A DNA stretch of 55,751 bases from a virus (IMGVR_UViG_3300048888_000044:1-55751); one strand, 5' to 3'; shown: positions 7,012 through 48,728, numbered from the stretch's first letter. The notes: generated by a model from the sequence alone, not told the origin. A program made the numbers and translations.

Positions 7012-7296
7012 TCATCGTAACTTTCTGTTCGCAGCTTTGTCAGCCTGTTTGTTTATGACAGAGAGGCATCCCAGTAGCTGTTCGGAGTATGAGCCAGCGC
7101 GAGATGGGTTTAGTTCTTTCAGACGTTCGGCCTGCCTGATACATCTCTTTGCGTCGGCTTGAAGTTGCACAAGCTCTTCGTAATTGTGCATCGAAGATTC
7201 CAATGTCATGTTTTCGATCCGTCCTTCCCATTCGCCTCTGCCGTTACACTCGGGGCACCTTCCTGTTCCACCGCATTCTTCGCACTCGCATTTCAT
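7012..7296 (-). CDS. Protein with DnaJ-type zinc-finger repeats
   Basis: CEECGGTG-CPECNGRG. Confidence 0.65.
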   Translation of the reverse strand: MKCECEECGGTGRCPECNGRGEWEGRIENMTLESSMHNYEELVQLQADAKRCIRQAERLKELNPSRAGSYSEQLLGCLSVINKQADKAANRKLR

Positions 7297-7302
7297 TGGT
7301 GG

Positions 7303-9114
7303 TCACGCATGGGTCAACATTTTCGACATAAGTAAATTTTGAGTTTTCTTCTCTTCCTTGTCAAGGAAGTTGTTTTGTTCCAACTCGAATGCTCCGGGAA
7401 GACGGTTGATTTGAAATCCAAGACGACGCGCGCCTTCAACGGCGGTGGCCAGCCAGTCGAACTTGTCAGGGGAACGGCCGATGCGTTCCTTCATCTTTTC
7501 CTTGGTCTCGACCTGAACCTTGTTTCCCCTAACTTCCTTCCACTCCCTGAGACATCCCTCTTCCATCACGTCCGGTGGGAGTCCTCGTAGCTGCTCGCTC
7601 TCGATGGTGTAACGAACTGAGTACCACAACTCGGTGACGAAGTTGGCGTACTTCTCGTGACACAACATCAGCCTCTTTTCACCCGTTCGAGGATCTCGAA
7701 TGAACGTGTCGTGTGTTACCGGACGCGATGTGGGTGATCCGCCGAACTCAACCGGATTGACCGCCGGACTCCAAACACGACCGAAGCTGGTTCCCAGTGA
7801 ACCTCGTCCGGTGGCGTCGTGGAAGACGTTCTCCGGTGGAATGTCCTGTGGAATGCAAGCGTCTCGAACAAACGTGGCAATCTGGTCCTCGGGAGAAATT
7901 CCAACGTTCATCTGAATCGGAATGGTGACTGGTATTGGAACGTAGAGAATTAGCCGTCCAGTTTCGTCCATCCCAAACTCGATATGACCACCAACGCAAC
8001 GGTCACCTCCGACAACACCGTAAGCGGCATCGACCGCGTACGCTTTCACTCGCCGGTTGTTCATCCAAATTGGAGATTCGAGGGCGTGATGTGTCTCACA
8101 CAAGTCTCGTGTGATGACCTTGCGCGCGATGAGTCCGGTGATGCGTGCGCCTTTGCACTGTGACCAGTACTCCGACGAGTTGGGACCGTAATCGCGCAAG
8201 GTGTCCTGAATGACGTCGGGTCGGGTGAGGTACGGAAACCGGACTTCACCGGGGAAATCGAAGTTGGGGGAGTCCGTGCCGATCAGGTTGACACAGACGC
8301 CACCGAACTTTCTGGTTTTCCACACCGCAGTCTTTTCCGGCACCGGATGATTGCTCCAACCGCACTCCGGCTCGGCCACCTGATCGAGGGGATCGCCCAT
8401 GCCCAAAGGGTTACCCAGGAAAGCAGCCTTGAAATCGGGGTTGTTACGCAGGTTCGCGATGGCCGCAAGGAAACTCGTGGCCATGAACTGACATTCATCA
8501 GCGAACAGTCTGACTCGCTTCTGTTTTGCGCCGGCGTAACGGCCAAGTCCCTTGTATTGTCCGCGGTCGGACAGGCAGGGAATACAGATGATCCCTTTGC
8601 GAAGGTCGCGAATTTTTCCATCGCCGGCTTCCTGGCTGCTGATCGCGTGCAGGTAATCGACCACGAAACCGGGGAAATCATCGTCCATCTCGTGCGCGCG
8701 TTCCCAAAGTGATTTGATCGAACCCCAGACACGCAACTCCAACCCACGAACGTCGGTGCTGCTCACGAGAGTCAGTGTTTCCTCGGGGAAACAGGCGTAA
8801 TCTGTGAGACCGATCTTGGCGATGGTGTAGGTTTTGCCGCTGTTGGCCGATCCCATCAGTGTCGTGTACTGGTGTGAGAGATATTCCTTCAAGATGAGGT
8901 CAGCCCAACGATGATCGTCGTCATCGGGCCACCACAGGCGCCACAAGTTCTTGTAATGTTGGAACAGACCAAGGCCGAATACGGTTCCGTCTTCGTCTTT
9001 CCACTGACCACCTTTTCGGATGCAGGCTTTCTCGACTTCGATCTCAGGATCGCCGCTGTGGATCTTCCACGTTATCCCGTATTTCGTGGTCGTTTTCATG
9101 CTTGCGTGAGGCAC
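7303..9114 (-). CDS. terL: Terminase large subunit
   Basis: Walker A GSANSGKT, Walker B LFADE, LGNP motif, RNase H-like VDAAYG..GDR and RSPDKFD. Confidence 0.9.
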   Translation of the reverse strand: MPHASMKTTTKYGITWKIHSGDPEIEVEKACIRKGGQWKDEDGTVFGLGLFQHYKNLWRLWWPDDDDHRWADLILKEYLSHQYTTLMGSANSGKTYTIAKIGLTDYACFPEETLTLVSSTDVRGLELRVWGSIKSLWERAHEMDDDFPGFVVDYLHAISSQEAGDGKIRDLRKGIICIPCLSDRGQYKGLGRYAGAKQKRVRLFADECQFMATSFLAAIANLRNNPDFKAAFLGNPLGMGDPLDQVAEPECGWSNHPVPEKTAVWKTRKFGGVCVNLIGTDSPNFDFPGEVRFPYLTRPDVIQDTLRDYGPNSSEYWSQCKGARITGLIARKVITRDLCETHHALESPIWMNNRRVKAYAVDAAYGVVGGDRCVGGHIEFGMDETGRLILYVPIPVTIPIQMNVGISPEDQIATFVRDACIPQDIPPENVFHDATGRGSLGTSFGRVWSPAVNPVEFGGSPTSRPVTHDTFIRDPRTGEKRLMLCHEKYANFVTELWYSVRYTIESEQLRGLPPDVMEEGCLREWKEVRGNKVQVETKEKMKERIGRSPDKFDWLATAVEGARRLGFQINRLPGAFELEQNNFLDKEEKKTQNLLMSKMLTHA

Positions 9115-24585: not shown

Positions 24586-24840
24586 TCACAGAGGTTTATG
24601 GCAATGGGGGCAAACAAACATTTCCCGTGGAAGATTCAAGAATGCACGCAATTCGTCTTCAGCCATCTTGCCGAAGTTCCAATATTTTCGGCATTCTCCG
24701 CTTATCACTAATTTACGAAGTCGTCTTGTGTTCAATCTTCCATCTACCGTGAAGCACTGAGAATTGGCTATAAAATTCTGACAGCGCACACTCAATTTAT
24801 TCACCAAATCCGACCTCCCTTGACTGTGTGACATACTCAT
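24586..24840 (-). CDS. RNA polymerase alpha-CTD-like protein with C-terminal CxxC
   Basis: LSVRCQN...NFGKMAEDELRAFL...CPHC. Confidence 0.5.
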   Translation of the reverse strand: MSMSHSQGRSDLVNKLSVRCQNFIANSQCFTVDGRLNTRRLRKLVISGECRKYWNFGKMAEDELRAFLNLPREMFVCPHCHKPL

Positions 24841-24889
24841 AACTAAATTTTTACTTGCAAGTGTCGATTCAATGCAAGACAAATAGTGA

Positions 24890-25075
24890 ATGCCAGTAGC
24901 CGAGAGTCGAACATACACCCGCAAACGCGATGGGAAGAGCCGCACGCAGTTCACGGTTTGGATTCTCGACGAGCTGTTGCCGGCGCTGCAAAAGGTGTCC
25001 GCTGACACGGGCAAGGCACAAACCAAGGTGCTCGCCGAGTTCGGAGAGGCCAGATTGAGGAGGGTGAAGGTATGA
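24890..25075 (+). CDS. Small DNA-binding protein (RHH-like)
   Basis: Basic N-terminus, beta strand QFTVWI then two helices. Confidence 0.45.
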   Translation: MPVAESRTYTRKRDGKSRTQFTVWILDELLPALQKVSADTGKAQTKVLAEFGEARLRRVKV

Positions 25076-25084
25076 AACGCAAAA

Positions 25085-25175
25085 TTCTAACGCCAAAGCT
25101 GAGCCGGGACGCTCGAATGAGGACGAATGACTAAACCAACGTGCCAGCGGCCTTGGCTCCAGCGTCTGGTTAGGT
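25085..25175 (-). other. attC-like site 1
   Basis: Minus strand ACCTAAC-CAGAC-GCTGGAGC...GCTCAGC-TTTGGC-GTTAGAA. Confidence 0.9.
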
Positions 25176-25448
25176 GCATTCAGTTGGGGCACTCTCCAAA
25201 TAAAGAGTCTTGTGCTTCAGGATTTCCAAGTCCGACAGGGCAAGAAACTGCGTGGCAGCGTTCAAAGATAATGGCAAAGGAAACAGCCAAACATTGTCGA
25301 AGAGCAATTTGGTGTGCGAATCTTTCTTTTTTAGCGTTTCGTATTCACTTAAAAGATACTGCCAAGACTTCCATTTATCGGTTGGTGGTTCGTGCCCGTG
25401 AGATGGTGACGGCTTTTCGACGCAAATCAGTAAGTGTGGGGTGTTCAT
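25170..25448 (-). CDS. Cassette 1 gene (canonical orientation), hypothetical
   Basis: ATG shortly after GTTAGGT; stop TAA inside ACCTAAC of attC1. Confidence 0.7.
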   Translation of the reverse strand: MNTPHLLICVEKPSPSHGHEPPTDKWKSWQYLLSEYETLKKKDSHTKLLFDNVWLFPLPLSLNAATQFLALSDLEILKHKTLYLESAPTECT

Positions 25449-25464
25449 ATTGTGAAGGGAATGC

Positions 25465-25601
25465 ACCTAACGACCGAAGCTCACCCGCGACGCTGAAGGA
25501 AAAGGAGATTCATGAAAAAGAATAAAACCGATATGAAAAAGAATAAAACCGATGGTCTAACCTCAACGCCAGCGGCGTCGCGGTGCAGCGCATGGTTAGA
25601 C
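25465..25601 (-). other. attC-like site 2
   Basis: GTCTAAC-CATGC-GCTGCACC...GGTGAGC...GTTAGGT; loop holds a 21-nt tandem duplication. Confidence 0.88.
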
Positions 25602-25904
25602 ATCATGCCGAAGCTGTTTACTCTCCAACATCTTTCTCGTCTTCTCTTCCTCGTCAGACAGCCAATTTGGTGGAGTTTGAAGGGCAGCCAGTTTATTCTT
25701 CAATGCCGTATTATCTTTCATAAGTCGCTCTATCGTTTTTATCTGTGTCGCAAGTGTGTCGTCTTGTTTGTCAGCGCGCGCCTGGTACGCTTCCGCCTCT
25801 TCCAAGCCGAGCGAAAGCTGATTGCGCAATATGGCCGTGACTGGCGGCTTCGTGTGTTCAACAATGAGTGCGTCGAGTCTTTGAAGATGTTCGATAAGAT
25901 TCAT
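25596..25904 (-). CDS. Cassette 2 gene (canonical orientation), coiled-coil protein
   Basis: ATG about 15 nt after GTT; stop TAA inside GTCTAAC of attC2. Confidence 0.75.
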   Translation of the reverse strand: MNLIEHLQRLDALIVEHTKPPVTAILRNQLSLGLEEAEAYQARADKQDDTLATQIKTIERLMKDNTALKNKLAALQTPPNWLSDEEEKTRKMLESKQLRHDV

Positions 25905-25912
25905 ACGATGAT

Positions 25913-26002
25913 GTCTAACCCCGGAACTCAGCGACCCGGCGACCAGACGAAGGACTCACCCTCAACGCCCAAGCCGGGTTCGTTGGAGTGACCTGGTTAG
26001 AA
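25913..26002 (-). other. attC-like site 3 (probable founding site of array 1)
   Basis: Plus strand GTCTAAC...ACTCAGCGACCCGGC / GCCGGGTTCGTTGGAGT...GTTAGAA. Confidence 0.85.
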
Positions 26003-26004
26003 TT

Positions 26005-26295
26005 ATGATCTCCCCTCGCCAACTCTTCCTAAAACAGCCGTTCGCATCGAACGTTCAGAACTTTATCGTGCAAGACCAGTTTCAGGCGGCACTGGCCTAC
26101 GCGTTGGCGGACATGGCCACCAGCAGCGCCATCAGCGCCGATCAATTGTCCGGGGCCAAGCTGTTCATCGCGCACCTGAACGTCATCGGGGAACGCATCG
26201 AGGAAGAAAAGTCCGTCGAGTTGCCAACCCTGAGCCAGCCTGATCCACAGCAAATGCAACGCTTGAAAGAGCAACAGAAGAAGGGTAACAAGTAA
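26005..26295 (+). CDS. Hypothetical protein preceding scaffold
   Basis: 96 aa ORF, 2 nt before scaffold ATG. Confidence 0.7.
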   Translation: MISPRQLFLKQPFASNVQNFIVQDQFQAALAYALADMATSSAISADQLSGAKLFIAHLNVIGERIEEEKSVELPTLSQPDPQQMQRLKEQQKKGNK

Positions 26296-26297
26296 TT

Positions 26298-27527
26298 ATG
26301 CCAGCCTCACTCGAAGCCCCTCCAGCACCAGCTCAAACCACTCCAGCACCAGCGCCGTCGCCGACACCACCATCTCAGCCGGTGACGATGCCATCTCCGC
26401 AACCGGCCTCGACCGCTCCGGACCCGGACAAGTTTTTCGACACCCTGGACGACGCTCCCAAGCCACCCGAGCCAAAGCCTGCCTCGACGGAGGCCACCAA
26501 GCCCGATCCCAAGACTCCGGCAAAACCGGGTGAACCCAAGCCTGGAACTGAACCAGCCAAGCCGGCCGGCGAGAAGCCGGAACAGTTCAAGAGCCCGAAG
26601 GAACTGCGCCAGGCGTACGATCGCACGTCGAACGAACTGAAGGCCAAGAACGCCGAGGTGGTGCGCCTGCTGCAACAGCTTGAGACAGCCAAGGCTGGCG
26701 TACAGCCAAACACGACCGAGATAGCGGCACTCACCGAACGGCTGGCGCGACGCGAGAAGGAGTTCTCCGAGTTGGAATCCGAGCTCAAGGTCATCCGTTA
26801 CGAGAAGTCTCCTGAGTACAAGGCCAAATTCCTTGAACCTTTCAACGCGGCGACGAAACGAGCGCATGATGCGGTCAGCCAGTTGGTGATCACCGCCGAG
26901 AACAAGCAGACTGGAGAAAAGTCCGAACGCCGGGCGACCGTGGCCGATTTCAACGCTGTGGCAAGTCTTCCCGAGGGAGCCGCTTGGCAGAAGGCCAGGG
27001 CCATATTCGGCGAGGACGCGCACCTCGTCATGCGCCACTACAACAAGTTGAGTGAGATCGCCGAACAATCACAGGTCGAGATCGAGCGTTACCAGAAGGA
27101 AGCCGCGGACAGGGAGAAGACCGACGTGGCGCGCAGTGCCACTGAACGACAGGCGGCAGAGGCAATGTCACGCAAGGCCGATGAAGGCTGGCAGAAACGA
27201 AGCAAGTGGTTTGCTCCAGTCGAGGGTGACGACGAAGGAAATGCCCTGTTGAAAACCGGGTTTGAACGCGTGGACGCTGACACTGGAGCATTGACTCCGG
27301 CACAACGCATCATCCAGCAGAGTTACGTGCGCCACGCGGCGGCGGCGTATCCCAGGTTGAAGGCCAAGGTGACGGCCTACGAGACGCGCATTGCGGATTT
27401 GGAAGCTAAGCTCAAAGAGTTCGAGAATTCCGAACCTGGACCATCGCGAACGACTCCAGGACTGAAACCCGACAAGGGGATCGCTGAAGATGCCATGACC
27501 GATCCGAAAGCTCCGTGGAACCAATAA
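26298..27527 (+). CDS. Putative capsid scaffolding protein
   Basis: Pro/Ala/Lys-rich N-terminus then long coiled coils. Confidence 0.6.
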   Translation: MPASLEAPPAPAQTTPAPAPSPTPPSQPVTMPSPQPASTAPDPDKFFDTLDDAPKPPEPKPASTEATKPDPKTPAKPGEPKPGTEPAKPAGEKPEQFKSPKELRQAYDRTSNELKAKNAEVVRLLQQLETAKAGVQPNTTEIAALTERLARREKEFSELESELKVIRYEKSPEYKAKFLEPFNAATKRAHDAVSQLVITAENKQTGEKSERRATVADFNAVASLPEGAAWQKARAIFGEDAHLVMRHYNKLSEIAEQSQVEIERYQKEAADREKTDVARSATERQAAEAMSRKADEGWQKRSKWFAPVEGDDEGNALLKTGFERVDADTGALTPAQRIIQQSYVRHAAAAYPRLKAKVTAYETRIADLEAKLKEFENSEPGPSRTTPGLKPDKGIAEDAMTDPKAPWNQ

Positions 27528-27531
27528 CCCC

Positions 27532-27559
27532 TTGACACACGGCAAGGATTTTGTAATGT
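27532..27559 (+). promoter_or_regulatory. Sigma70-type promoter
   Basis: TTGACA-N16-TAATGT directly before HTH gene (probably leaderless). Confidence 0.65.
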
Positions 27560-27817
27560 GTGTCGATGTCACGTTCAAAAGGCCATCGCACGGGTGAGAT
27601 AGAGGGAATTCGGGTTCGTCCGAGTCTGCAACTGCTGAACATCATCAGCGCGTATCCCACGACCAACGCCGCAGCCAAATTTCTTGGTCTCGCCTATTCG
27701 ACGCTCGACAGTTTCATCAATCACGAGGGAGGAATCAGCCTCGACAACGCCGCGCAGATCATCACGCGGACGGGGTTGAGTTACGAACAACTGTTCAAGC
27801 ACAAGAAGGAGAAGTGA
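27560..27817 (+). CDS. Cro/CI-type HTH regulator
   Basis: NAAAKFLGLAYSTLDSFIN...ISLD...YEQLF. Confidence 0.75.
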   Translation: MSMSRSKGHRTGEIEGIRVRPSLQLLNIISAYPTTNAAAKFLGLAYSTLDSFINHEGGISLDNAAQIITRTGLSYEQLFKHKKEK

Positions 27818-28374
27818 GCGACAAACAGAAATACGGACGAGAGGTTGCTCTAAAGGTGGCTGAAGACCTTCAATCCCGACTCAAGCTGGCGTGCCGTAGA
27901 ATGGCTGTGGCTGGATCACTGCGTCGAGGAAAAGAAACCGTTGGAGATGTTGAGCTGCTTTTTGTGCCAGTGCTGGCGGAACGGGCCGATGGACTGTTTG
28001 ACCGCCGCTTGGTGTCCGTGGCGGACGAAGTGTGCAACGAACTGTTGCGCGACGGAATTCTAGCGAAACGCCCAAACGTCAAAGGTCACTTTACGTGGGG
28101 CGAGGCAAACAAGCTGGCGGTGCATGTTGCAAGCGGAGTGCCGGTGGACTTCTTTTCCACGACCGAAGACAACTGGTGGGTGAGTCTGGTGATTCGCACT
28201 GGCAGCAAGGAAACCAACCTGAAGCTGACCAACGGAGCCATTCACCTTGGCAGGAAATTACACGCTTACGGATCGGGAGTTACGATGCCGGACGGAAGCA
28301 CTCGAAAAGCCCAAAGCGAACAGGAAGTTTTTGAACTGTGCGGAGTCCCTTACCTTGAACCGAAAGACCGATAA
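27814..28374 (+). CDS. Minimal family X DNA polymerase
   Basis: AGSLRRGKETVGDVELL, VDFF, RTGS, SEQEVFE..G.PY.EP..R. Confidence 0.9.
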   Translation: MSDKQKYGREVALKVAEDLQSRLKLACRRMAVAGSLRRGKETVGDVELLFVPVLAERADGLFDRRLVSVADEVCNELLRDGILAKRPNVKGHFTWGEANKLAVHVASGVPVDFFSTTEDNWWVSLVIRTGSKETNLKLTNGAIHLGRKLHAYGSGVTMPDGSTRKAQSEQEVFELCGVPYLEPKDR

Positions 28375-28376
28375 AC

Positions 28377-29489
28377 ATGACCACCCAACTATCCAAACCG
28401 AACACCATCGAGTCGATGCTGGCGTCGCCTCAGATACGTCAACGCTTCAACGAGATGCTCGGGCAACGCGCGCCGCAGTTCATTTCGTCGATTATCACCG
28501 TTTACCGTGGATTTTCTTCCCCGGTAGATCCGGCGAGCGTCATTGCCAGCGCCGCCATCGCCGCCACCCTGGACCTTCCGATCGAGAAGAACCTTGGTTT
28601 CGCGCACATCGTTCCTTACGCGGGCGTGGCTCAATTTCAAATGGGAGCGAAAGGACTGACCCAGTTGGCTCTTCGCAGCAATCAGTATTCGGGGATGAAC
28701 GCCGTGGCCATCAATGCGGAGTGCTTCGGTGGGTACGACAACATTGGAGATCCGATCATTCGTTGGGACTTGCTTGACGAGACCAAGGAAGCGATTGGGT
28801 ACGTGTTCGCGTGGCGTCTGACTAGCGGATTTTCAAAGACGGTTTACTGGCCCAAAGCGAAGGTGGTTGCTCACGCTGAACGATTCAGCCAGGCGTACAA
28901 GAAAAAGAAGGCTGACAGTCCGTGGATGAACAACTTTGACGCAATGGCCCTGAAAACTGTGATAGCAAACTCACTGCGACGGTGGGGTATTTTGAGCGTT
29001 CAGATGCAAACCGCGTTCAAATACGACCAGGCGATCATCAAGAACATCGACGCCGAACCGCAGTACGAGGACGATATCCCGTTCGGTCCGGCGACGACCT
29101 CCAAACTGATTTCAGGCGGGAAGAAAACCCGCAAGCAGGAGCCTCAGGAACCGACTGAGCCTGAGCAACCAATTTCCGGCGAGGGTTCTGACGAGTCCAC
29201 CGCCGGCACTCCCGCGCCCATCGCCCCTGGTTCTCCAGATCAGCTCAATGGGCCGGGAGTTGTTCCTTTGGAGCACGGTGACAGTGAGGACGCCAACGAG
29301 GTCATTCGCATCATCATGGCCAACGCGCGTGAGCTGGGAATCGAGGAAAAGTTGCTGATGATGTGGTCCAAGGCGGCGAAACTGGCTTCTGAAAAACAGA
29401 GTCAACTGAGCGACCTGGCGACGCACAAGCTCAAGAAAATCTGCGAACAATGGCCGGCCGTGGTGAAGGAGATTACCGGGAAGTCATAA
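28377..29489 (+). CDS. recT: RecT-family ssDNA annealing protein
   Basis: AATLDLPI..NLGFAHIVPY..AQFQMG.KG..QLALRS, FDAMALKTV; stop is the TAA of attC4. Confidence 0.92.
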   Translation: MTTQLSKPNTIESMLASPQIRQRFNEMLGQRAPQFISSIITVYRGFSSPVDPASVIASAAIAATLDLPIEKNLGFAHIVPYAGVAQFQMGAKGLTQLALRSNQYSGMNAVAINAECFGGYDNIGDPIIRWDLLDETKEAIGYVFAWRLTSGFSKTVYWPKAKVVAHAERFSQAYKKKKADSPWMNNFDAMALKTVIANSLRRWGILSVQMQTAFKYDQAIIKNIDAEPQYEDDIPFGPATTSKLISGGKKTRKQEPQEPTEPEQPISGEGSDESTAGTPAPIAPGSPDQLNGPGVVPLEHGDSEDANEVIRIIMANARELGIEEKLLMMWSKAAKLASEKQSQLSDLATHKLKKICEQWPAVVKEITGKS

Positions 29490-29571
29490 CGACAAGCTGA
29501 GGCACGGCGGAGAAAACCAATGACCATGAAAAGCGAACAATCCCGCCGTTGCCTCCAGCGACTGGTTCGAG
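29484..29571 (-). other. attC-like site 4
   Basis: CTCGAAC-CAGTC-GCTGGAGG-CAACGGCGG / CCGCCGTG-CCTCAGC-TTGTC-GTTATGA. Confidence 0.9.
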
Positions 29572-29953
29572 GACATTCGTGTATCCCGTCGAAGCCAATC
29601 ACTCCACCGTCCTCGGCTACGGAGCAACCTCAAAAGCTGGAAAACCAATGTGGGCGGCGCTGGTGTGGGCTGGCGCACGCAAGGACGGCGGCGCACACAT
29701 GATGAATCCGACCGGAGGCGAATACCTGCACGTCCGCGTGAAGCCTCTGACGGACGGCTGCTGGTATCGCGTCCGCTGCTCCCACTCCCGCGGAAACAGA
29801 TGGCGTGGCGGCGTCGTGGAAAATGTCGAAGTAAAACAAAAACGGGGCAAGTGGCACTGGCACGTCACTGTGTCCTCGAACGTAGAGGTGAGCGGTCAGA
29901 GTGGGCGCGATAAGGCGTCCGCCTGCAAGCCGGACTCAATGCGCCCACTCTGA
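29549..29953 (+). CDS. Cassette A gene, hypothetical
   Basis: Frame open from attC4 into attC5; start uncertain. Confidence 0.5.
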   Translation: MPPATGSRTFVYPVEANHSTVLGYGATSKAGKPMWAALVWAGARKDGGAHMMNPTGGEYLHVRVKPLTDGCWYRVRCSHSRGNRWRGGVVENVEVKQKRGKWHWHVTVSSNVEVSGQSGRDKASACKPDSMRPL

Positions 29954-29976
29954 TTCGCTCGACCGATTTGTTAGAC
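29875..29976 (-). other. attC-like site 5
   Basis: Arms TCAGAGTGGGCGC / GCGCCCACTCTGA with extrahelical bases. Confidence 0.92.
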
Positions 29977-29984
29977 GACGATTT

Positions 29985-30236
29985 ATGAAACAAGACAACC
30001 AATGGCATGACGGAATCGTGTATCAGCACTCTGATGATGGCAAATTCGTGCTCGCTGAAAACTTAGAGGAAGCTGACAAAGACAATCGCCCGATGACGAT
30101 GGAAGGGGGAGGCGTGAAATACCAAGACGTGAAATACAACTGGAATCGCGGACAGCCAATCGTGGACTTCGGCGATTTCAAAATGGTCATCACAGACATC
30201 GGGTTCGTAAAACTGGACGAAACGCAAGTCGTCTAA
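29985..30236 (+). CDS. Cassette B gene, hypothetical
   Basis: ATG just after GTTAGAC; stop in GTCTAAC. Confidence 0.7.
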   Translation: MKQDNQWHDGIVYQHSDDGKFVLAENLEEADKDNRPMTMEGGGVKYQDVKYNWNRGQPIVDFGDFKMVITDIGFVKLDETQVV

Positions 30237-30338
30237 CGAAAAGCTGACGCACAGCCGCGATTAACTATGAGCACGAAATTAACCTGTGACGCTGGACTGC
30301 AACAGACCCCGGCTGTTGCGTCCGGCGTCTTGTTAGCA
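30231..30338 (-). other. attC-like site 6
   Basis: GCTGACGCACAGCCG / CGGCTGTTGCGTCCGGC arms flanked by AAC and GTT. Confidence 0.9.
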
Positions 30339-30617
30339 CCCAAAACCCTCGAAGAACTCATAAACCAAGCCGCCGAAGTGCTGCCTGACTGGTGGGAGAT
30401 ACGAATCGAAGTGCAGCAAGGATACGGGCAAGCAATCGTGACGCGGCCAGACGGCACGGAAGTGCAAATGTCCGATGGCGAGAACGACATCCGAGAACAG
30501 TTTCGTGATGCGCTGGGTCTGGTGCGTGATGAACTGGAAGCAGACAAACTCTTGGGTGCTAACGACAAGCTCAGAGATGGCGCGACAGAGAGGCGTCCAT
30601 ATTCACAGGAAACGTAA
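30267..30617 (+). CDS. Cassette C gene, hypothetical
   Basis: Starts in attC6 loop, ends in attC7 loop. Confidence 0.7.
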   Translation: MSTKLTCDAGLQQTPAVASGVLLAPKTLEELINQAAEVLPDWWEIRIEVQQGYGQAIVTRPDGTEVQMSDGENDIREQFRDALGLVRDELEADKLLGANDKLRDGATERRPYSQET

Positions 30618-30648
30618 TCGCGCCATTCTCTGAAGCGCATGGTTAGAG
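30557..30648 (-). other. attC-like site 7
   Basis: GCTCAGAGATGGCGCGA / TCGCGCCATTCTCTGAAGC arms. Confidence 0.92.
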
Positions 30649-30661
30649 CACGTCAAATACA

Positions 30662-30976
30662 ATGAAAACACTGACACCAGGACACAAATACGAACTCGAA
30701 AACTTCGAGGCCAAAGACCAACCCGGTCAGGTCATCCAGTTCATCGAGAAAACTCCAGTCGCCGGCGAACCCGGCAAACTGGTCACACTCAACGACGGCA
30801 CGACCAACGAGGAAGTGCTCAAGATGCTGATAGACCGCTGCCAGTCTCTCTACGACAAATTCCCGTCGGAGGAAACGGCGTGCTCCATCAGCCATCTCAA
30901 ATCGGCGCTATACGCGCAACAGTCCCGGACATACGAACGCTCTCAACGCGGCGTCGAAGGGAAGCACCTCAAGTGA
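30662..30976 (+). CDS. Cassette D gene: Tad1/Acb2-like anti-defence sponge
   Basis: H.Y...IQF...GTTNEEVL..LIDR...F.SEETAC.I.HL..AL....RT.ER..RGVEG matches the Tad1 pattern. Confidence 0.7.
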   Translation: MKTLTPGHKYELENFEAKDQPGQVIQFIEKTPVAGEPGKLVTLNDGTTNEEVLKMLIDRCQSLYDKFPSEETACSISHLKSALYAQQSRTYERSQRGVEGKHLK

Positions 30977-31001
30977 CAACCGAGCACGGGGAGACTAAGT
31001 G

Positions 31002-31127
31002 CTCTAACGCAGAAGTGAGCGGACAGCCGCCGAGTGCGACTCGCAATGACACCAAAAATCTATGAGCAAAAATAACGAATCGAAACGGAAAAGCGGGGCG
31101 GCTGTTCGCTCCACTGACGGGTTAGGC
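31002..31127 (-). other. attC-like site 8
   Basis: AGTGAGCGGACAGCCGCC / GGCGGCTGTTCGCTCCACT arms. Confidence 0.9.
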
Positions 31128-31325
31128 ATCGGCACAATCCACGACCCAAAAGCTATGTTCCTCCGCAACTACGTCGGGGAAGCAACGTGCGGAAAACTCA
31201 AATACGAAATTAGCACTGGAATGAACGGCTCGCCAATCGTCCACAGCAAGAAATCCGGCAAGTGGTTCTCGCTATCATGGCAAGACATTCTGGCGCTCGC
31301 GGAGAAGGCAGGCGTAGATGCCTAA
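31062..31325 (+). CDS. Cassette E gene, hypothetical
   Basis: Starts in attC8 loop; stop in GCCTAAC. Confidence 0.7.
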   Translation: MSKNNESKRKSGAAVRSTDGLGIGTIHDPKAMFLRNYVGEATCGKLKYEISTGMNGSPIVHSKKSGKWFSLSWQDILALAEKAGVDA

Positions 31326-31444
31326 CGCAGAAGTCAGCGACAGCCGCCGAGAGAAACCATGAACGACACTCTGACATTGGAACAGCCAGCAACGCCTCGA
31401 AACGGAGAGCGGGGCGGCTGTTCGTCTGCACTGATTGGTTCGGC
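31320..31444 (-). other. attC-like site 9
   Basis: AGTCAGCGACAGCCGCC / GGCGGCTGTTCGTCTGCACT; similar to attC8. Confidence 0.9.
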
Positions 31445-32048
31445 ATTTCGGTGTGTCGTAGCTGACCCTCCGTGGCTGCCAACGATGGCACTGGTGAATA
31501 GTCCTGCCAGCGGTATCGGTGCACCGAAGGCAAGTCCGCAACGCCACTACCCGACGATGAGCGTCGAGGAAATCTGCGCCCTGAATCCGCCGTCTGCCAC
31601 TCAATCTCACCTCTGGCTCTGGTGTCTGAATCAGCACACGGATTGGGGTCACACCGTCGCAAAGGCGTGGGGCTTTGAAGTGTTCCAGATGGTGACGTGG
31701 TGCAAACCCGGCCTCGGAACTGGCCGATTCCAATGCAACAGCGAGCAAGTGCTACTCTGCCGGAAAGGAACTCGCCACGGCAATCCGTTCGGGATGACCG
31801 GCGGCACATACTTCAACTGGCCGCGTGGCCGACACTCTGAAAAGCCGGATTCATTCTACGACCTCGTGGAGCGAGTATCACCTGGCCCGCGTCTGGAAAT
31901 GTTCGCTCGCACCCGCAGACTCGGCTGGTCTGCATGGGGCAACGAAATCTCCAGCGACGTAGAAATGCCGAACGCAGAGTCCAGCTATCGGAGTGGGCCG
32001 GTAGCGGCGTCGAATAAACCGGCGGCTCAATCGGCCCACTCCGATTAG
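31359..32048 (+). CDS. Cassette F gene: MT-A70-family adenine methyltransferase
   Basis: ADPPW, HLWLW, HSEKP, RLEMFAR, GWSAWGNE. Confidence 0.9.
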   Translation: MNDTLTLEQPATPRNGERGGCSSALIGSAFRCVVADPPWLPTMALVNSPASGIGAPKASPQRHYPTMSVEEICALNPPSATQSHLWLWCLNQHTDWGHTVAKAWGFEVFQMVTWCKPGLGTGRFQCNSEQVLLCRKGTRHGNPFGMTGGTYFNWPRGRHSEKPDSFYDLVERVSPGPRLEMFARTRRLGWSAWGNEISSDVEMPNAESSYRSGPVAASNKPAAQSAHSD

Positions 32049-32067
32049 CTGCGACGATTGGTTAGCT
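31967..32067 (-). other. attC-like site 10
   Basis: GTCCAGCTATCGGAGTGGGCCG / CGGCCCACTCCGATTAGCTGCGAC with two extrahelical bases. Confidence 0.93.
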
Positions 32068-32074
32068 GCTTTTT

Positions 32075-32503
32075 ATGGGAATGTTTGACGACATCAAGTG
32101 CAAGTATCCGCTGACGGTGGAAGGTGCGAACGCGCTCGCCTACCAGACGAAGGACACCGACGCGCAGCAACTCGACAACTACGAGATTCGAGAGGACGGA
32201 ACGCTGTGGCACGAGAACTACGATCCTCGATTTGAGGAGCACAAAGAAGCGCCTCTCGGCTTCTACATCCACCGCGACAACCTGAGATGGGAGCAAGTGC
32301 CCATAACTGGCGAAGTCCGATTCTACACGATGTATGGCGTCAAAGACGGGCAACTGGTGAACGCCAACGCCCGTGACGGCTGGCTGGAATGGTCGGCCTA
32401 CTTCGCGGACGGAAAACTCAATCAAATTCACCTGCTCGAAAACCGAGCGCCAGATGCAGCTAACGATGAGTTCAGGCGCACAGACCCGCCGTTGAAACCA
32501 TGA
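32075..32503 (+). CDS. Cassette G gene, phage-type hypothetical
   Basis: MGMFD...QTKD...Y.I.EDG.L...TG.VRFY...F.DG.L; stop in attC11 loop. Confidence 0.8.
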   Translation: MGMFDDIKCKYPLTVEGANALAYQTKDTDAQQLDNYEIREDGTLWHENYDPRFEEHKEAPLGFYIHRDNLRWEQVPITGEVRFYTMYGVKDGQLVNANARDGWLEWSAYFADGKLNQIHLLENRAPDAANDEFRRTDPPLKP

Positions 32504-32592
32504 CGCCACTCGAACAATCCAAGCCTGCCGACGAAGCCCGCGACTCTGTGCTGCGAAGCGGGGCTGTGTCGTCCTGCAACGATTTGTTAGGG
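32458..32592 (-). other. attC-like site 11
   Basis: GTTCAGGCGCACAGACCCGC / GCGGGGCTGTGTCGTCCTGCAAC. Confidence 0.88.
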
Positions 32593-33360
32593 CGCGTTTT
32601 GGTGGCGTGCGAATATAGCGGAACTGTCCGCGATGCGTTCAAACTCAAGGGATGGGATGCTTGGTCGTGTGACTTGCTTCCAACCGATGTTCCTGGACAA
32701 CACCATCAAGGAGACGTGGCAGAACTTCTGAAACAGCAATGGGACATAATCATCGCCTTCCCACCATGCACCTATCTCTGCTCGTCTGGAATGCACTGGA
32801 CTGTGCGAGGCAAGCGCGATCCTCAACTGACGGAAGACGCGCTCAGTTTCGTGCGCTCATTCCTCGATGCTCCCTGTGAACACATCGCGCTCGAAAATCC
32901 AGTCGGCTGCATCTCGACGCGCATCCGAAAACCGGACTGCGTGATTCACCCTTGGCAATTCGGACACCCCGAATCCAAGACAACCTGCCTATGGCTCAAA
33001 AATCTTCCGGCGCTCGTGCCGACAAATATCCTGACAAAGCCAGCAAGCGGCCACTGGGAAAACCAATGCTCAACCGGCTCGCAAAACCGACTAGGGCCAA
33101 GCCCAACCCGGTGGAAGGAACGAAGCAAAACATATCAAGGCATCGCCTCCGCGATGGCCGCACAGTGGAGCGCGTTCGTATTAAATTCGCGCACGACTGC
33201 CAAGAGTGTCCCGATTGCGGAGAACCTTTTTGCTTGGAGTGCCAGGAACACTACGCCGACTGCCGATGTGTCGGGCCAAGCAACGCCGAAGATGATGGAT
33301 GGACGCTCATTGAACGGCGTGGAGTGCTCTACGGCGAACGCAACGCGCCCTAACAAATGA
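32500..33360 (+). CDS. Cassette H gene: C5-cytosine methyltransferase-like
   Basis: VLVACEYSG, SCDL, FPPCTYL, ENPVG, HPWQFGH; ATG supplied by attC11 loop. Confidence 0.8.
   Translation: MTPLEQSKPADEARDSVLRSGAVSSCNDLLGRVLVACEYSGTVRDAFKLKGWDAWSCDLLPTDVPGQHHQGDVAELLKQQWDIIIAFPPCTYLCSSGMHWTVRGKRDPQLTEDALSFVRSFLDAPCEHIALENPVGCISTRIRKPDCVIHPWQFGHPESKTTCLWLKNLPALVPTNILTKPASGHWENQCSTGSQNRLGPSPTRWKERSKTYQGIASAMAAQWSAFVLNSRTTAKSVPIAENLFAWSARNTTPTADVSGQATPKMMDGRSLNGVECSTANATRPNK
33165..33353 (+). CDS. Cassette H second ORF, Cys-rich Zn finger
   Basis: CQECPDCGEPFCLECQEHYADCRC; stop in CCCTAAC. Confidence 0.55.
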   Translation: MERVRIKFAHDCQECPDCGEPFCLECQEHYADCRCVGPSNAEDDGWTLIERRGVLYGERNAP

Positions 33361-33366
33361 TTAGAC
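33348..33366 (-). other. attI-like simple site closing array 2
   Basis: Minus strand GTCTAAT-CATTT-GTTAGGG (L, 5-bp spacer, R); no attC arms. Confidence 0.6.
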
Positions 33367-33369
33367 AAC

Positions 33370-33678
33370 ATGGCGCGCCGAGCAAATAGCCGAAATGTCT
33401 GGTGGCAAAATCACTACGCCAAACTGCGCGCCGCCAAGGAACGCAAGCGTCTTGCCGATCCTGATTTCAGCCAGGAAACGAATCCCCTAGTGCCAATTCC
33501 GCGCCCCAAAGCGCGCTTCCGTATCTTGATTGAGGATCAGCAGGTGGGTGACCGGCTCCAGATCAAACTTTATCCCACTCCCTTCCGCGGCCAGTTTGCG
33601 ACGGGCGATGGGATCCGCAGCGTGCGCCAGCTCGAACGCGCCTTTGGCCATATTTTGAGAACAGCTTTTACCGTATGA
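33370..33678 (+). CDS. Hypothetical basic protein
   Basis: 102 aa, coupled to next gene. Confidence 0.6.
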   Translation: MARRANSRNVWWQNHYAKLRAAKERKRLADPDFSQETNPLVPIPRPKARFRILIEDQQVGDRLQIKLYPTPFRGQFATGDGIRSVRQLERAFGHILRTAFTV

Positions 33679-34769
33679 AAAGAACCCCATTCAGCGCCTC
33701 AAACTTTTCACGCCGTCGTCTCTGCAACGGCAGTCTCCCGATGGAGGACGGGTTGCCCGAGGTCGAGAACGAGTGGTCGGCGGAAGGGACGCTGCTGCAC
33801 CACGCCGCGGCGACACAAGTTCACACGGGTCTCAACCAATATCAGTCAGAAGTGGTTCAGCAAGCACTCGGTCATCGAAATCGGTTCATCGACACTCTCG
33901 CTCCACCAGACCCGGACGACTGGAAATTCTTCTTCGAGATCGAACTGCCGTACACTCTCAAGAACAAGACCGTGTTCCTGAACCACGCGGACTACGTGGC
34001 AGTGTTCCCAAAGGCCGTCGCCATCGTGGACTACAAATTCGGCTACGAGGAAGTCGATGCGCCGGAACTGAACGAGCAACTGGCGGTTTACATTGCCTGC
34101 TTGGCCGAGAAATTTGACGTACCGGAATACTACGGCCTGATAATCCCCAGGTTTGGCAATCCGGCGCCACCGGTGAAGTACACGCGCGCGGAGATTCCTG
34201 CCCTGCGAAAGATGATCGAGGACGTGTACGACGCCTGCACACCGAAGGCACCACGCACGCCTGGGGTGAGGCAGTGTACCTATTGCAAAGGTTTTCAGCT
34301 TGGTTTGTGCAAAGAGGCAATCAGCATGGCGATGAATCCAGTCCACAAGTTCAGCGGAAAGTTGCTTCAGAATCCCGGCCAAGTATTGCAATCACTCCCT
34401 GCGACTGACCGCACCAAACTCTTCGACGCCTTCGCGATGGCCGACAAGTTGCGCAAGACGTTCGTGGCCGCAGTCAAACCGATGATTGAGCGAGATCCTG
34501 AGTTCGTTCCTGGATACCGACTCAGCAAGGAGGGTGAGACAAGAAGCAAGGTTACGGATTTGTTCAGCTTAGAGGAAAGGCTGTGGAAAAAATTGAATTT
34601 GTCCCACGAAGGATTTGTGGCTCACTGCTCTATTTCCAACACGGAATTGAAAGATTTGGTTCGCGAGATTTCGGGCCTAAAAGGCAAAGAGCTGGACGCA
34701 AAGGTTGCTGAGTTGACTAAGGGACTGGTGGATACGACGCCGGTGGAAAGGAGTTTGGAGAGGGTATGA
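33675..34769 (+). CDS. Cas4-like PD-(D/E)XK exonuclease (DUF2800-like)
   Basis: C..S, AEGTLLH, AD, IVDYKFG, N.QL..Y, C..C....C. Confidence 0.8.
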   Translation: MKRTPFSASNFSRRRLCNGSLPMEDGLPEVENEWSAEGTLLHHAAATQVHTGLNQYQSEVVQQALGHRNRFIDTLAPPDPDDWKFFFEIELPYTLKNKTVFLNHADYVAVFPKAVAIVDYKFGYEEVDAPELNEQLAVYIACLAEKFDVPEYYGLIIPRFGNPAPPVKYTRAEIPALRKMIEDVYDACTPKAPRTPGVRQCTYCKGFQLGLCKEAISMAMNPVHKFSGKLLQNPGQVLQSLPATDRTKLFDAFAMADKLRKTFVAAVKPMIERDPEFVPGYRLSKEGETRSKVTDLFSLEERLWKKLNLSHEGFVAHCSISNTELKDLVREISGLKGKELDAKVAELTKGLVDTTPVERSLERV

Positions 34770-47313: not shown

Positions 47314-47664
47314 GTGAAACTTCCAAACTATGTCAGCGAAACCATCAAGCGGCTCAACCCGAATTTGTTTGTTCGTCGAGTGGATTCCGAAATCTCCGAA
47401 CCGGACCCGCGGCGAGCACTGGTCGAAGACGTTCAAGCACGGGAAAAAAGCTCACGATGCGTGGCGTATCGCGTGGTACTCGTCGCCCACCGCAAGAGAC
47501 TGGTTGATGATGACAATAACGTCGCCGGCTGCAAACCTCTCAGAGATGCCATCGCAGAAACCTTGAGGATCGACGACGGCGACGAACGAATTCAGTGGGA
47601 GTACGGTCAGGTGAAAACGAGTGGAACCGGGGGTGTGTTCGTCATCATTGAAAAGACGTTGTGA
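47314..47664 (+). CDS. RusA-like Holliday junction resolvase
   Basis: DDDN....KPLRDAI...IDD motif. Confidence 0.6.
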   Translation: MKLPNYVSETIKRLNPNLFVRRVDSEISEPDPRRALVEDVQAREKSSRCVAYRVVLVAHRKRLVDDDNNVAGCKPLRDAIAETLRIDDGDERIQWEYGQVKTSGTGGVFVIIEKTL

Positions 47665-48728
47665 AGGACCGACTGACCATCATTTGCGGAGATGCGCTGA
47701 CGGAGTTGAGAAAACTGCCGGAAGAAAGCGTGCAATGCTGCGTCACGTCACCTCCCTATTGGGGACTCCGCAATTACGGGCATCCTGACCAAATCGGACA
47801 AGAGGCAACGCCAGAAGAATACGTCGAAAATCTCCGCCGCGTATTCGCGGAAGTGCGCCGCGTGCTCCGCAAGGATGGAACTTGCTGGCTGAATCTCGGT
47901 GACAGCTTCTTCGGGTCTTGGGGCAACTACTCCGGCCAGAATCGCGGCAACGGCAAGCAGCGCGAAATAGCCAACGGCTCGCAAGTGCCGAATCACGCCT
48001 ACGACGGCGAGGAAACGATGCGCCCGCCAACTTCCGGGAAGCATCCAACGCTCAAGCCGAAAGACCTCTGCATGATTCCAGCGCGCGTCGCGCTCGCGCT
48101 GCAAGCCGATGGCTGGTGGCTGCGCTCGGACATCATCTGGGCGAAACAAAACTGTATGCCCGAAAGTGTGACGGACCGACCGACGCGCTCCCATGAATAT
48201 CTGTTCCTGCTCACGAAGTCTGAACGCTACCACTACGACCACGAGGCCATCAAAGAACCCTGCATCTACGACACGGGCGCTCCCGGCACAAGCACCGCTG
48301 ACCGCAAGGCCCGCGCCGCCGGAAACAAACTTCTGCCGACTGCCGAGCGAAACGGAATCCGGGCGGCGAATCCGGACAAGCAGCGCGGCCACTCACGCCG
48401 GCACGATGGCTTCAATGACCGCTGGGATAAGATGGAGAAGGCGGAACAATGCTCCGGGATGAGAAACAAGCGCGATGTCTGGACTGTCGCTCCAGCAAAC
48501 TATCCCGAATCGCACTTCGCGACCTTCCCGCCGGACCTGATAAAACCCTGCATCCTCGCCGGCTCGAAGCCTGGAGACGTGGTGCTTGATCCTTTCGCGG
48601 GCAGCGGCACTACCGGAATGGTCGCACTGGAACTGGGACGCAAAGCTCTGTTGATAGAACTCAATCCGGATTACGTGAAGCTCATCGAGAAAAGAACTCA
48701 CGTCACTCCCGGTCTAGCGCTCTCCTGA
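47661..48728 (+). CDS. Beta-class N4C/N6A DNA methyltransferase
   Basis: TSPPY, HFATFP, VLDPFAGSGTT. Confidence 0.93.
   Translation: MKDRLTIICGDALTELRKLPEESVQCCVTSPPYWGLRNYGHPDQIGQEATPEEYVENLRRVFAEVRRVLRKDGTCWLNLGDSFFGSWGNYSGQNRGNGKQREIANGSQVPNHAYDGEETMRPPTSGKHPTLKPKDLCMIPARVALALQADGWWLRSDIIWAKQNCMPESVTDRPTRSHEYLFLLTKSERYHYDHEAIKEPCIYDTGAPGTSTADRKARAAGNKLLPTAERNGIRAANPDKQRGHSRRHDGFNDRWDKMEKAEQCSGMRNKRDVWTVAPANYPESHFATFPPDLIKPCILAGSKPGDVVLDPFAGSGTTGMVALELGRKALLIELNPDYVKLIEKRTHVTPGLALS

Follow-up and report, generated by a model that had tools for sequence, protein, structure and literature searches.

The window analysed here is an entire virus record of IMG/VR (IMGVR_UViG_3300048888_000044; 55,751 bp), and it carries two arrays of small genes, array 1 with two units and array 2 with eight, in which the units are separated by hairpin sites of the attC kind. 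The two ends of every unit are perfectly complementary to each other over 9 to 13 nt. We consider it very likely that the units are integron cassettes whose ends record insertion as circles, and that they form a two-array CALIN (a cluster of attC sites without an integrase) in the early or recombination region of a phage. The record is classed by CheckV as 99% complete with linear ends. Its gene content includes a weak match to the terminase large subunit, a match to a tail or structural protein, recT, a PD-(D/E)XK nuclease and several DNA methyltransferases; no tRNA was found in the window.

The cassette ends were compared in a matrix of 11 GTT sides and 12 AAC sides, in which perfect complementary runs were scored. 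Each of the ten strings on the GTT side is unique in the window, and its exact reverse complement is also unique and ends at the next AAC. On the + strand, the G of the GTT stands at 25169, 25595, 29565, 29970, 30332, 30642, 31121, 31438, 32061, and 32586, and the C of the matching AAC stands at 25471, 25919, 29881, 30237, 30563, 31008, 31326, 31973, 32464, and 33354. The cognate runs, with the cassettes in order, were 13, 12, 11, 10, 12, 10, 10, 12, 9, and 13 nt, so that all ten of the complementary end pairs proposed in the sequence-only reading were recovered. That reading had also held that the two boxes of one linear attC pair less well, and they indeed paired over only 3 to 6 nt in 11 of 11 sites. 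The 3.5-kb backbone stretch between attC3 and attC4 gave a run of only 4 nt. The 110 other GTT/AAC pairings had a mean of 4.5 nt (34 at 3, 8 at 4, 48 at 5, 17 at 6, 2 at 7, and 1 at 9). Shuffled end pairings that match equally well had been named as the result that would count against the claim; however, the observed sum of 116 was reached in 0 of 100,000 random re-pairings, the best of which gave 98. The proposed cassettes, each of which opens with the C of one AAC and closes with the A that precedes the C of the next, correspond to the correct crossover unit. Beyond the conserved 5 nt, the complementarity is different in each cassette and covaries between homologous cassettes. The end complementarity was thereby confirmed to lie far beyond chance, and the ends of each unit, once circularised, restore one paired attC.

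Matched ends are a general, textbook property of integrons and are not peculiar to this phage. In eight other loci (seven viral and one plasmid), runs of at least 8 nt were found in 20 of 31 adjacent units, compared with 3 of 190 non-adjacent pairings. The runs in three bacterial chromosomal integrons were 3 to 13 nt over 11 units, and the class 1 integron used as a control gave a run of 9.

Each intergenic element is bounded by two boxes 74 to 123 nt apart, the first with AAC at its end and the second with GTT at its start, and folds into an imperfect hairpin. All 11 sites have AAC and GTT; the prevailing boxes are YTAAC and GTTAG, with the variants CGAAC, ATAAC, and GTTCG, and their outermost R and Y positions do not always match the consensus RYYYAAC ... 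GTTRRRY. From the box inward, the layout is a spacer of mostly 4 nt, 3 to 4 bp, a bulged base, 5 bp, a bulged T, a long stem, and a variable loop. The two single-base bulges are conserved on the 3' arm of the + strand, and one of them is a nearly invariant T. When the 11 window sites were folded, extra unpaired bases were located on the 3' arm of the + strand in nine, one site was tied, and one misfolded; the bulges of the class 1 control were on the 3' arm of the + strand in both of its sites.

Nineteen short-loop attC sites from the window and three other viral contigs were aligned (alignment A2), and the alignment served as the basis of covariance model R1. Compensatory changes were observed in 15 of 15 stem pairs. 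The proportion of paired cells was 88.4%, compared with 65.1% in shuffles (0 of 500 reached the observed value) and 29 to 42% when the structure was slid along the alignment. Model R1 returned exactly 11 sites in the window, all on the + strand, of which five were absent from the training set, and it returned no attC site in the related phage G001 (55.9 kb). Built from viral sites only, it matched the attC of the qacG2 cassette in a class 1 integron (E=1.5e-4), and it also matched attCs beside the integron integrases of a cyanobacterial plasmid, one Acidobacteriota chromosome, and two Planctomycetota chromosomes; in each of these bacterial and plasmid integrons the matches were on the intI strand, upstream of intI. 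Judged by their boxes, fold, and fit to the model, the 11 intergenic elements are taken to be genuine integron attC sites. A crude folding-energy scan was dropped in favour of the covariance model; at -12 kcal/mol it gave 6 to 13 background matches per shuffled window, and its extra matches in the G001 locus L001 lay inside genes.

A 21-nt signature of attC5 and attC10 was used to find further viral contigs and led to L011 and G002. The latter, 52 kb long, is rated 96% complete; it encodes a DnaB-like helicase and has weak matches to terminase and tail proteins. Its long array wraps around the contig ends and stops 27 nt before the gene of a 322-aa tyrosine recombinase, which matches TIGR02249 over the full profile length with 256 bits (cut-off 265). 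Among solved structures, the recombinase is closest to VchIntIA (E=8e-44), in an alignment that includes the IntI-specific KYP..W.FLFP segment, and it is 35.6% identical to IntI1; by these matches it is an integron integrase. IntI homologues occupy the same position in L046 (250 bits) and in L050 (268 bits, over the cut-off of 265). An alignment of the three proteins led to 61 IMG/VR loci (L053-L113) with genes for relatives of an integron integrase; in 37 of these loci the identity was at least 48% across almost the entire protein. Five partial matches and two duplicates were left out, and the remaining 54 loci were searched with model R1; 165 attCs were found, in 44 loci. On the intI strand, 155 were located upstream and 6 downstream of intI; on the other strand, none was located upstream and 4 were located downstream. 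Oppositely oriented attCs downstream of intI were seen in G002 (one, L018 6065-6158, - strand) and in L091 (four, 7120-8821, - strand), and they may represent a mirrored second array.

The same geometry was observed in the class 1 control, in which intI1 is on the + strand, the cassettes are to its left, and both the model match and the bulged 3' arm are on the + strand. Since the attC/intI geometry is the same, the + strand of the window would correspond to the canonical bottom strand, which an integron integrase cuts between A and C. By this analogy the crossover would be placed between the A and C of the 5' box on the + strand (AA|C), that is, at G|TT on the - strand, and we regard this placement, together with the reading of polarity and gene inversion that goes with it, as probable. 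It agrees with the crossover sequence G|TTRRRY given by Qi et al. (2023; PMC9892861). The G|TT crossover of the sequence-only reading therefore yielded the right coordinates, but on this analogy it belongs on the - strand at the AAC positions and not at the + strand GTTs that had been named. If the crossover were instead at the + strand GTT, array 2 would open with a half-site that belongs to no cassette, and its last cassette would have no attC. With the crossover at AA|C, array 2 divides into eight complete units between the recT stop and the final AAC, each composed of C, interior, gene, and AA, with nothing left over.

Array 1 begins with attC1 (25085-25175, + strand; cmsearch 69.2 bits, E=3e-15, and fold). 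Cassette 1 (25091-25470; 13-nt ends) holds a - strand ORF (25170-25448, 92 aa) that terminates with TAA inside the box and matches nothing in Pfam or PHROG. It is followed by the long-loop site attC2 (25465-25601, + strand; 36.6 bits, E=1e-6), which is outside the training set, and by cassette 2 (25471-25918; 12-nt ends), which has a - strand ORF (25596-25904, 102 aa, coiled-coil-like) that likewise terminates with TAA inside the box and has only weak, sub-threshold Pfam matches. A perfect 21-nt tandem duplication (25512-25553) was noted in the attC2 loop; each copy begins with ATG behind a strong AAGGAG. The array ends at attC3 (25913-26002, + strand; 51.7 bits), read as the interior of a backbone-resident attC, and its right box GTTAGAATTATG overlaps the start codon of the backbone gene at 26005-26295. 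Identity to the relative L001 begins at this site only at GAATTATG. The lone non-cognate match of 9 nt in the matrix joins the left box of attC1, which ends with the AAC at 25091, to the right box of attC3 (boxes at 25081-25091 and 25996-26007; 12 of 16 identities). Since the outer boxes of array 1 are mutually complementary, array 1 is best read as two cassettes that would have been inserted, in two insertions, into one attC resident in the backbone. Without cassettes 1 and 2, one intact backbone attC remains, and the rest of the phage genome is topologically a giant cassette.

Array 2 follows the backbone gene recT (28377-29489, + strand; Pfam RecT, E=3e-32; 84% identical to the L001 protein). 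The recT stop TAA together with the next C makes the first AAC, and there is no attC half on the backbone side. The first site is attC4 (29484-29571, + strand, as are all the sites that follow; 68.6 bits), which has two bulges on the 3' arm. The gene call in cassette 3 (29490-29880; 11-nt ends) is uncertain, being either 29648-29953 (+ strand, 101 aa) or 29520-29702 (+ strand, 60 aa), with no family for either. Behind attC5 (29875-29976; 61.0 bits), the cassette at 29881-30236 (10-nt ends) has an ORF (29985-30236, + strand, 83 aa) that starts at its own ATG past the box and ends with TAA inside the box that follows. Then follow attC6 (30231-30338; 46.8 bits, outside the training set), the loop of which contains an ATG at 30267 in frame with the downstream ORF, and the cassette at 30237-30562 (12-nt ends; ORF 30267-30617, + strand, 116 aa). 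The site attC7 (30557-30648; 83.6 bits) precedes the cassette at 30563-31007 (10-nt ends), whose ORF (30662-30976, + strand, 104 aa) matches phrog_2428, a family of unknown function (E=1e-16). The site attC8 (31002-31127; 46.2 bits, outside the training set) has a loop ATG at 31062, at which the ORF of the cassette at 31008-31325 (10-nt ends; ORF 31062-31325, + strand, 87 aa) begins.

Two cassettes in the remainder of the array carry DNA methyltransferase genes. The one behind attC9 (31320-31444; 49.1 bits, outside the training set; loop ATG 31359 and TTG 31377) extends over 31326-31972 (12-nt ends), and its ORF (31359-32048, + strand) belongs to the MT-A70 family (Pfam MT-A70, E=1e-17; phrog_359, E=1e-36). 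Next is attC10 (31967-32067; 66.9 bits), which is 97% identical over 94 nt to an attC of L011, with the identity ending at the boxes (blastn). The cassette at 31973-32463 (9-nt ends) has an ORF (32075-32503, + strand, 142 aa) that matches phrog_1615, of unknown function (E=7e-6). The second methyltransferase (phrog_757, E=7e-66; ORF 32500-33360, + strand) is carried by the last cassette (32464-33353; 13-nt ends), behind attC11 (32458-32592; 31.1 bits, outside the training set; loop ATG 32500). Both array methyltransferases probably counter restriction. A third DNA methyltransferase gene was noted outside the arrays, at 47661-48728 (phrog_67, E=1e-75), so that the phage has at least three. Other contigs from the sequencing runs hold attC10-like and attC11-like sites in other contexts.

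At the end of array 2 (33354-33369, + strand), the AAC has no attC interior behind it and is followed by GATTnnnCAAC (alignment A3), with GATTAGACAAC after the last AAC (33355-33369). A motif of the GATTnnnCAAC type is also found past the last cassette, ahead of the intI start codon, in L046 and L050, and G002 shows CATTnnnCAAAC at this place. The motif of only about 11 nt weakly hints at a candidate attI remnant, which it may be. The place that intI occupies in the integrase-encoding contigs is taken in the window by an ORF of 102 aa (33370-33678, + strand) that has no family and is missing from L001; it was considered as an intI remnant and rejected, as it has no similarity to IntI. The ORF is followed by the backbone gene of a PD-(D/E)XK / DUF2800 nuclease (33675-34769, + strand; Pfam), which in L001 stands directly after recT. 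The integron lies within a recombination module, with recT upstream and an exonuclease downstream in the window and intI directly before an exonuclease in G002. The enzymes of this module (recT and exonuclease) produce the single-stranded DNA that attC sites need for folding.

The canonical arrangement, in which the gene is upstream of its own attC on the top strand, was found in only 2 of the 10 units, namely cassettes 1 and 2. The other eight genes are on the + strand, which would be the attC bottom strand, and have the attC at their 5' end; four of them have family support (MT-A70, phrog_757, phrog_2428, and phrog_1615). An attC at the 5' end was also seen for domain-supported genes in G002 (PAPS-reductase-like and Dam), L049, and L046, and the inverted layout recurs in many integrase-encoding viral contigs. 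When the longest frame was taken in 109 units of integrase-encoding viral loci, it was on the intI strand in 63, on the opposite strand in 21, and undecided in 25. The bacterial arrays had their longest open frame opposite to intI in 10 of the 11 units, which is also how the annotated genes in the two plasmid integrons are oriented.

A loop ATG with a frame open for at least 40 codons past the box was present in 17 of 31 attCs on the + strand versus 6 of 31 on the - strand. In the MT-A70 gene, the stretch from the box to the catalytic DPPW motif is free of ATG, GTG, and TTG; the start of the gene must therefore be in the attC9 loop, at ATG 31359 or TTG 31377. The interior of attC11 is present in copies of 95% identity that stand in frame before three gene bodies, namely the window's phrog_757 gene, its homologue in L046 (with a different box), and an MT-A70 gene in L049/L050. 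From these frames we infer that several cassette genes use start codons within attC loops.

The genome of the relative G001 (L001) is 55.9 kb long and 100% complete, has direct terminal repeats, and is 67 to 96% identical to the window over 35 aligned segments. In this genome the nuclease gene begins within about 36 nt of the recT stop and array 2 is missing; the site of array 1 is occupied by 147 nt of unrelated, non-attC sequence. Both arrays are precisely absent from this relative, whose nucleotide identity to the window is 70 to 80%. In L011, recT is followed at the same junction by an array of different cassettes. Decayed parts were noted in L011 2800-6100 (reverse strand): one attC has lost most of its interior, an attC 5' arm leads directly into a Dam-like gene, and a methyltransferase on the side of the nuclease is truncated. 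Between relatives, whole arrays are present or absent, and homologous genes are located in differently ended cassettes.

The methyltransferases allow the cassette boundaries to be compared with those of homologous genes. The MT-A70 homologues align from residue 27-31 on, that is, from the GTT box, and the closest homologues of the second methyltransferase cover residues 28-278; a homologue of the latter outside any cassette (L039) has its ATG exactly at the window's box GGG. Two homologous MT-A70 genes (74% and 60% identical) are located in cassettes of their own with the self-complementary ends GTTAGGGAAC and GTTCGGCG, compared with GTTCGGCATTTC in the window, and both ends covary. The sequence-only reading had expected homologous genes elsewhere to be bounded at the same positions, as was observed for both methyltransferases. 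Its proposal of circular intermediates agrees with the end pairing, with these homologue boundaries, and with the array-free relative; the circles themselves are an interpretation, and no junction was present in the contigs of four runs.

Best IntI scores were about equal in Planctomycetota and Acidobacteriota, with IntI matches in 52 of 301 and 95 of 301 genomes, respectively (93 of 299 Acidobacteriota without the unpublished G356 and G459); since they are about equal, neither phylum is singled out as the host. A blastn search of array 2 against 50,697 phage records gave short methyltransferase matches only.

The window itself encodes no recognisable integrase. The integron integrase profile TIGR02249 had no match at E<=0.001 across the full 55,751-bp record, no tyrosine recombinase (PF00589) was found in the full record even at E<=1, and the best tblastn hit of a phage IntI against the window had only E=1.4. 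Both arrays are thus CALINs and not complete integrons, which have an adjacent intI. Since no integrase is encoded by the phage, either an enzyme acting in trans must catalyse recombination or the phage inherited its arrays pre-assembled.

Six soil or root sequencing runs contain 96 to 100% of the sampled words from 24800-34000. Contigs of X6, a run that is not flagged as the source of the window record, span all four junctions between array and backbone (24800-25813, 25793-28629, 29384-31276, and 33227-33818), and their sole difference from the window is a 19-nt insertion in the attC4 loop (window 29539). The attC loops seem free to vary by insertions and deletions, and an attC2 variant with a loop 78 nt shorter was seen in run X9. 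This run also gave attC1 and the start of cassette 1 at a different backbone junction (one 251-nt contig of depth 2, with 34 nt on its shorter side). In this contig, the end of the gene at 26298-27527 is followed by 13 nt and then by attC1 (window 27527 / 25087), and array 1 may occupy another backbone position in a relative.

We propose that an integron integrase would cut between the A and C of the 5' box on the + strand, and that a circular cassette with a fully paired R''/R' stem would be inserted at this crossover, by which the halves of its box would land at opposite ends of the unit. The outcome would be unit ends complementary over 9 to 13 nt and linear attCs that are each a hybrid of two cassettes. 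Array 2 would have been inserted at an attI-like or secondary site made by the recT stop TAA and C, and array 1 into the backbone-resident attC. The integrase would presumably be supplied in trans, by the host or by a co-infecting integrase-encoding phage, unless the arrays were inherited pre-assembled. Eight of the ten genes are aligned with phage transcription and oppose the canonical cassette polarity, several of them with probable starts in the attC loop.

Several observations have to be set against the view that the ends record the insertion of circular cassettes. No circle junction, precise-deletion variant, or single-cassette variant was present in the contigs of runs X6-X9; since contigs drop rare forms, this absence does not speak against mobility. 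Several + strand ORFs run past the end box into the neighbouring attC and hence lie partly in another cassette under any model. When linkage between gene and attC interior was sought in 130 units of viral arrays, there were only six homologous pairs (66 to 78% identity), with flanking attC interiors of 47 to 71% identity, neither of which was conserved. In addition, a search of 185,579 species genomes with the 21-nt signature of attC5 and attC10 gave five matches, all of them outside attC arrays and, by our estimate, about as many as chance would give.

Alternatively, the arrays could be inert relics: homologous or illegitimate recombination with an integron-bearing phage would have brought in a cassette block on a single occasion, and no cassette would have moved since in this lineage. 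The window has no integrase, the contigs have no excision allele, genes for recT-type recombination flank the array, and the attI-like motif at the array end resembles that of the integrase-encoding contigs, as it would after loss of intI. However, 10 of 10 end pairs are still perfect and 11 of 11 hairpins are intact, whereas other viral arrays keep at least 8 nt in only 20 of 31 units. Moreover, the recT junction is empty in L001 and holds a different cassette set in L011, and array 1 requires two separate insertions into a resident attC. We consider relics unlikely, at perhaps one chance among several. The units might instead be small transposon-like elements, of the kind of miniature inverted-repeat transposable elements, that are moved by a transposase and have nothing to do with integrons; the perfect inverted repeat of 9 to 13 nt around every gene is what such elements would show. 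Yet the repeats begin at the invariant GTT and AAC of a hairpin that the structure model also finds in genuine integrons, integron integrases adjoin arrays of this type in 44 of 54 viral loci, the sequence shows no target-site duplication, and no transposase was seen among the ORFs scanned in 23.7-34.8 kb or among ten large ORFs. This origin is very improbable.

Cognate pairing far above all controls, complementarity specific to each cassette beyond the conserved 5 nt, and a relative with the same operon but without any such element all contradict the idea that the hairpins are regulatory elements of the phage (terminators or RNA structures) with ends that are complementary by chance or through the conserved boxes. 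That idea draws on the appearance of the elements, G+C-rich stem-loops that stand between the genes of an operon and share one orientation, and we give it hardly any credence. A misassembly that joined phage sequence to a bacterial integron must be weighed as well, because the record is from a metagenome and attC repeats can mislead assemblers (the G002 array wraps around the contig ends). It is scarcely credible in view of the six runs and of the X6 contigs that bridge the four junctions with no difference but the loop insertion, and also because the array of L011 is at the same recT junction and the cassette genes fall in phage families. Insertion of circular integron cassettes is the reading that we retain.

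A broader reading is that a soil and freshwater phage lineage has an integron system of its own, of which the window phage would be a member without intI that uses a shared cassette pool through an integrase acting in trans. We hold this to be quite possible, although we would not yet bet on it. In such phage integrons, intI would be located in the recombination module, the backward cassettes would be read by early transcription toward intI, and the starts would be embedded in the attC loops. A bolder corollary, drawn from the backbone attC left when cassettes 1 and 2 are taken out, is that the entire phage genome could act as a giant cassette, insertable by a host integrase into a bacterial integron, which would amount to lysogeny without a phage integrase.

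Integrons are usually treated as bacterial devices and phages as occasional carriers of their fragments. Here, a near-complete phage genome has ten clean cassettes in a layout fitted to phage transcription, and the attC type is present in dozens of intI-encoding viral contigs. If the broader reading is true, phages would own a dedicated site-specific exchange of small accessory genes, such as anti-restriction methyltransferases, which would add to mosaicism by homologous recombination and would open a direct channel for cassettes between phage and bacterial integrons. The matched ends predict the circle junctions exactly.

A full-text literature search on integrons in phages returned Qi et al. 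2023 (Front Microbiol, PMC9892861) alone; a bioRxiv paper on myxobacterial viruses mentioned integrons in host genomes only. In the portion of the paper by Qi et al. at hand, 10,705 phage genomes of NCBI gave 17 CALINs, three complete integrons, and one In0. Virulent as well as temperate phages had CALINs, the cargo included methyltransferases, and five of six phage attCs tested recombined with attI1 under IntI1. The three complete integrons were described as captured from hosts or plasmids, and the arrays were called typical of bacterial arrays. The kind is thus already known, and the window is a new and very clean phage CALIN. Like those CALINs (PMC9892861), the window has attC arrays without intI and a cargo of DNA methyltransferases; unlike them, it belongs to an uncultivated phage and has a larger array (11 attCs). 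It further differs from the arrays described in the same portion in that its genes are mostly inverted relative to attC and that its attC type stands beside phage integrases in many IMG/VR contigs; the polarity of the arrays of Qi et al. lies outside this comparison and may be given in their supplement. The inverted gene/attC polarity, the start codons in attC loops, and the many viral contigs with an intI of their own look new, as they are absent from that portion of the paper (PMC9892861).

The window was also compared with the insertion of cassettes at non-att genomic sites (attC x attG) described, in the part of the preprint at hand, by Loot et al. (10.1101/2022.09.11.507474). As insertion outside a full att site would leave it, array 2 begins at a bare AAC; unlike an attC x attG product (10.1101/2022.09.11.507474), its end has the motif common to the integrase-proximal ends of phage integrons and may be a remnant attI. 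With bacterial integrons (class 1 control L051 and chromosomes L126-L128) the window shares the boxes, the 4-nt spacers, the two bulges on the 3' arm of the bottom strand, the variable loop, the polarity of the attC type relative to intI, and the rule of matched ends. Unlike them, it has neither intI nor a canonical attI, and its genes are mostly on the attC bottom strand. The window CALIN looks like a member of a phage-adapted variant of the integron.

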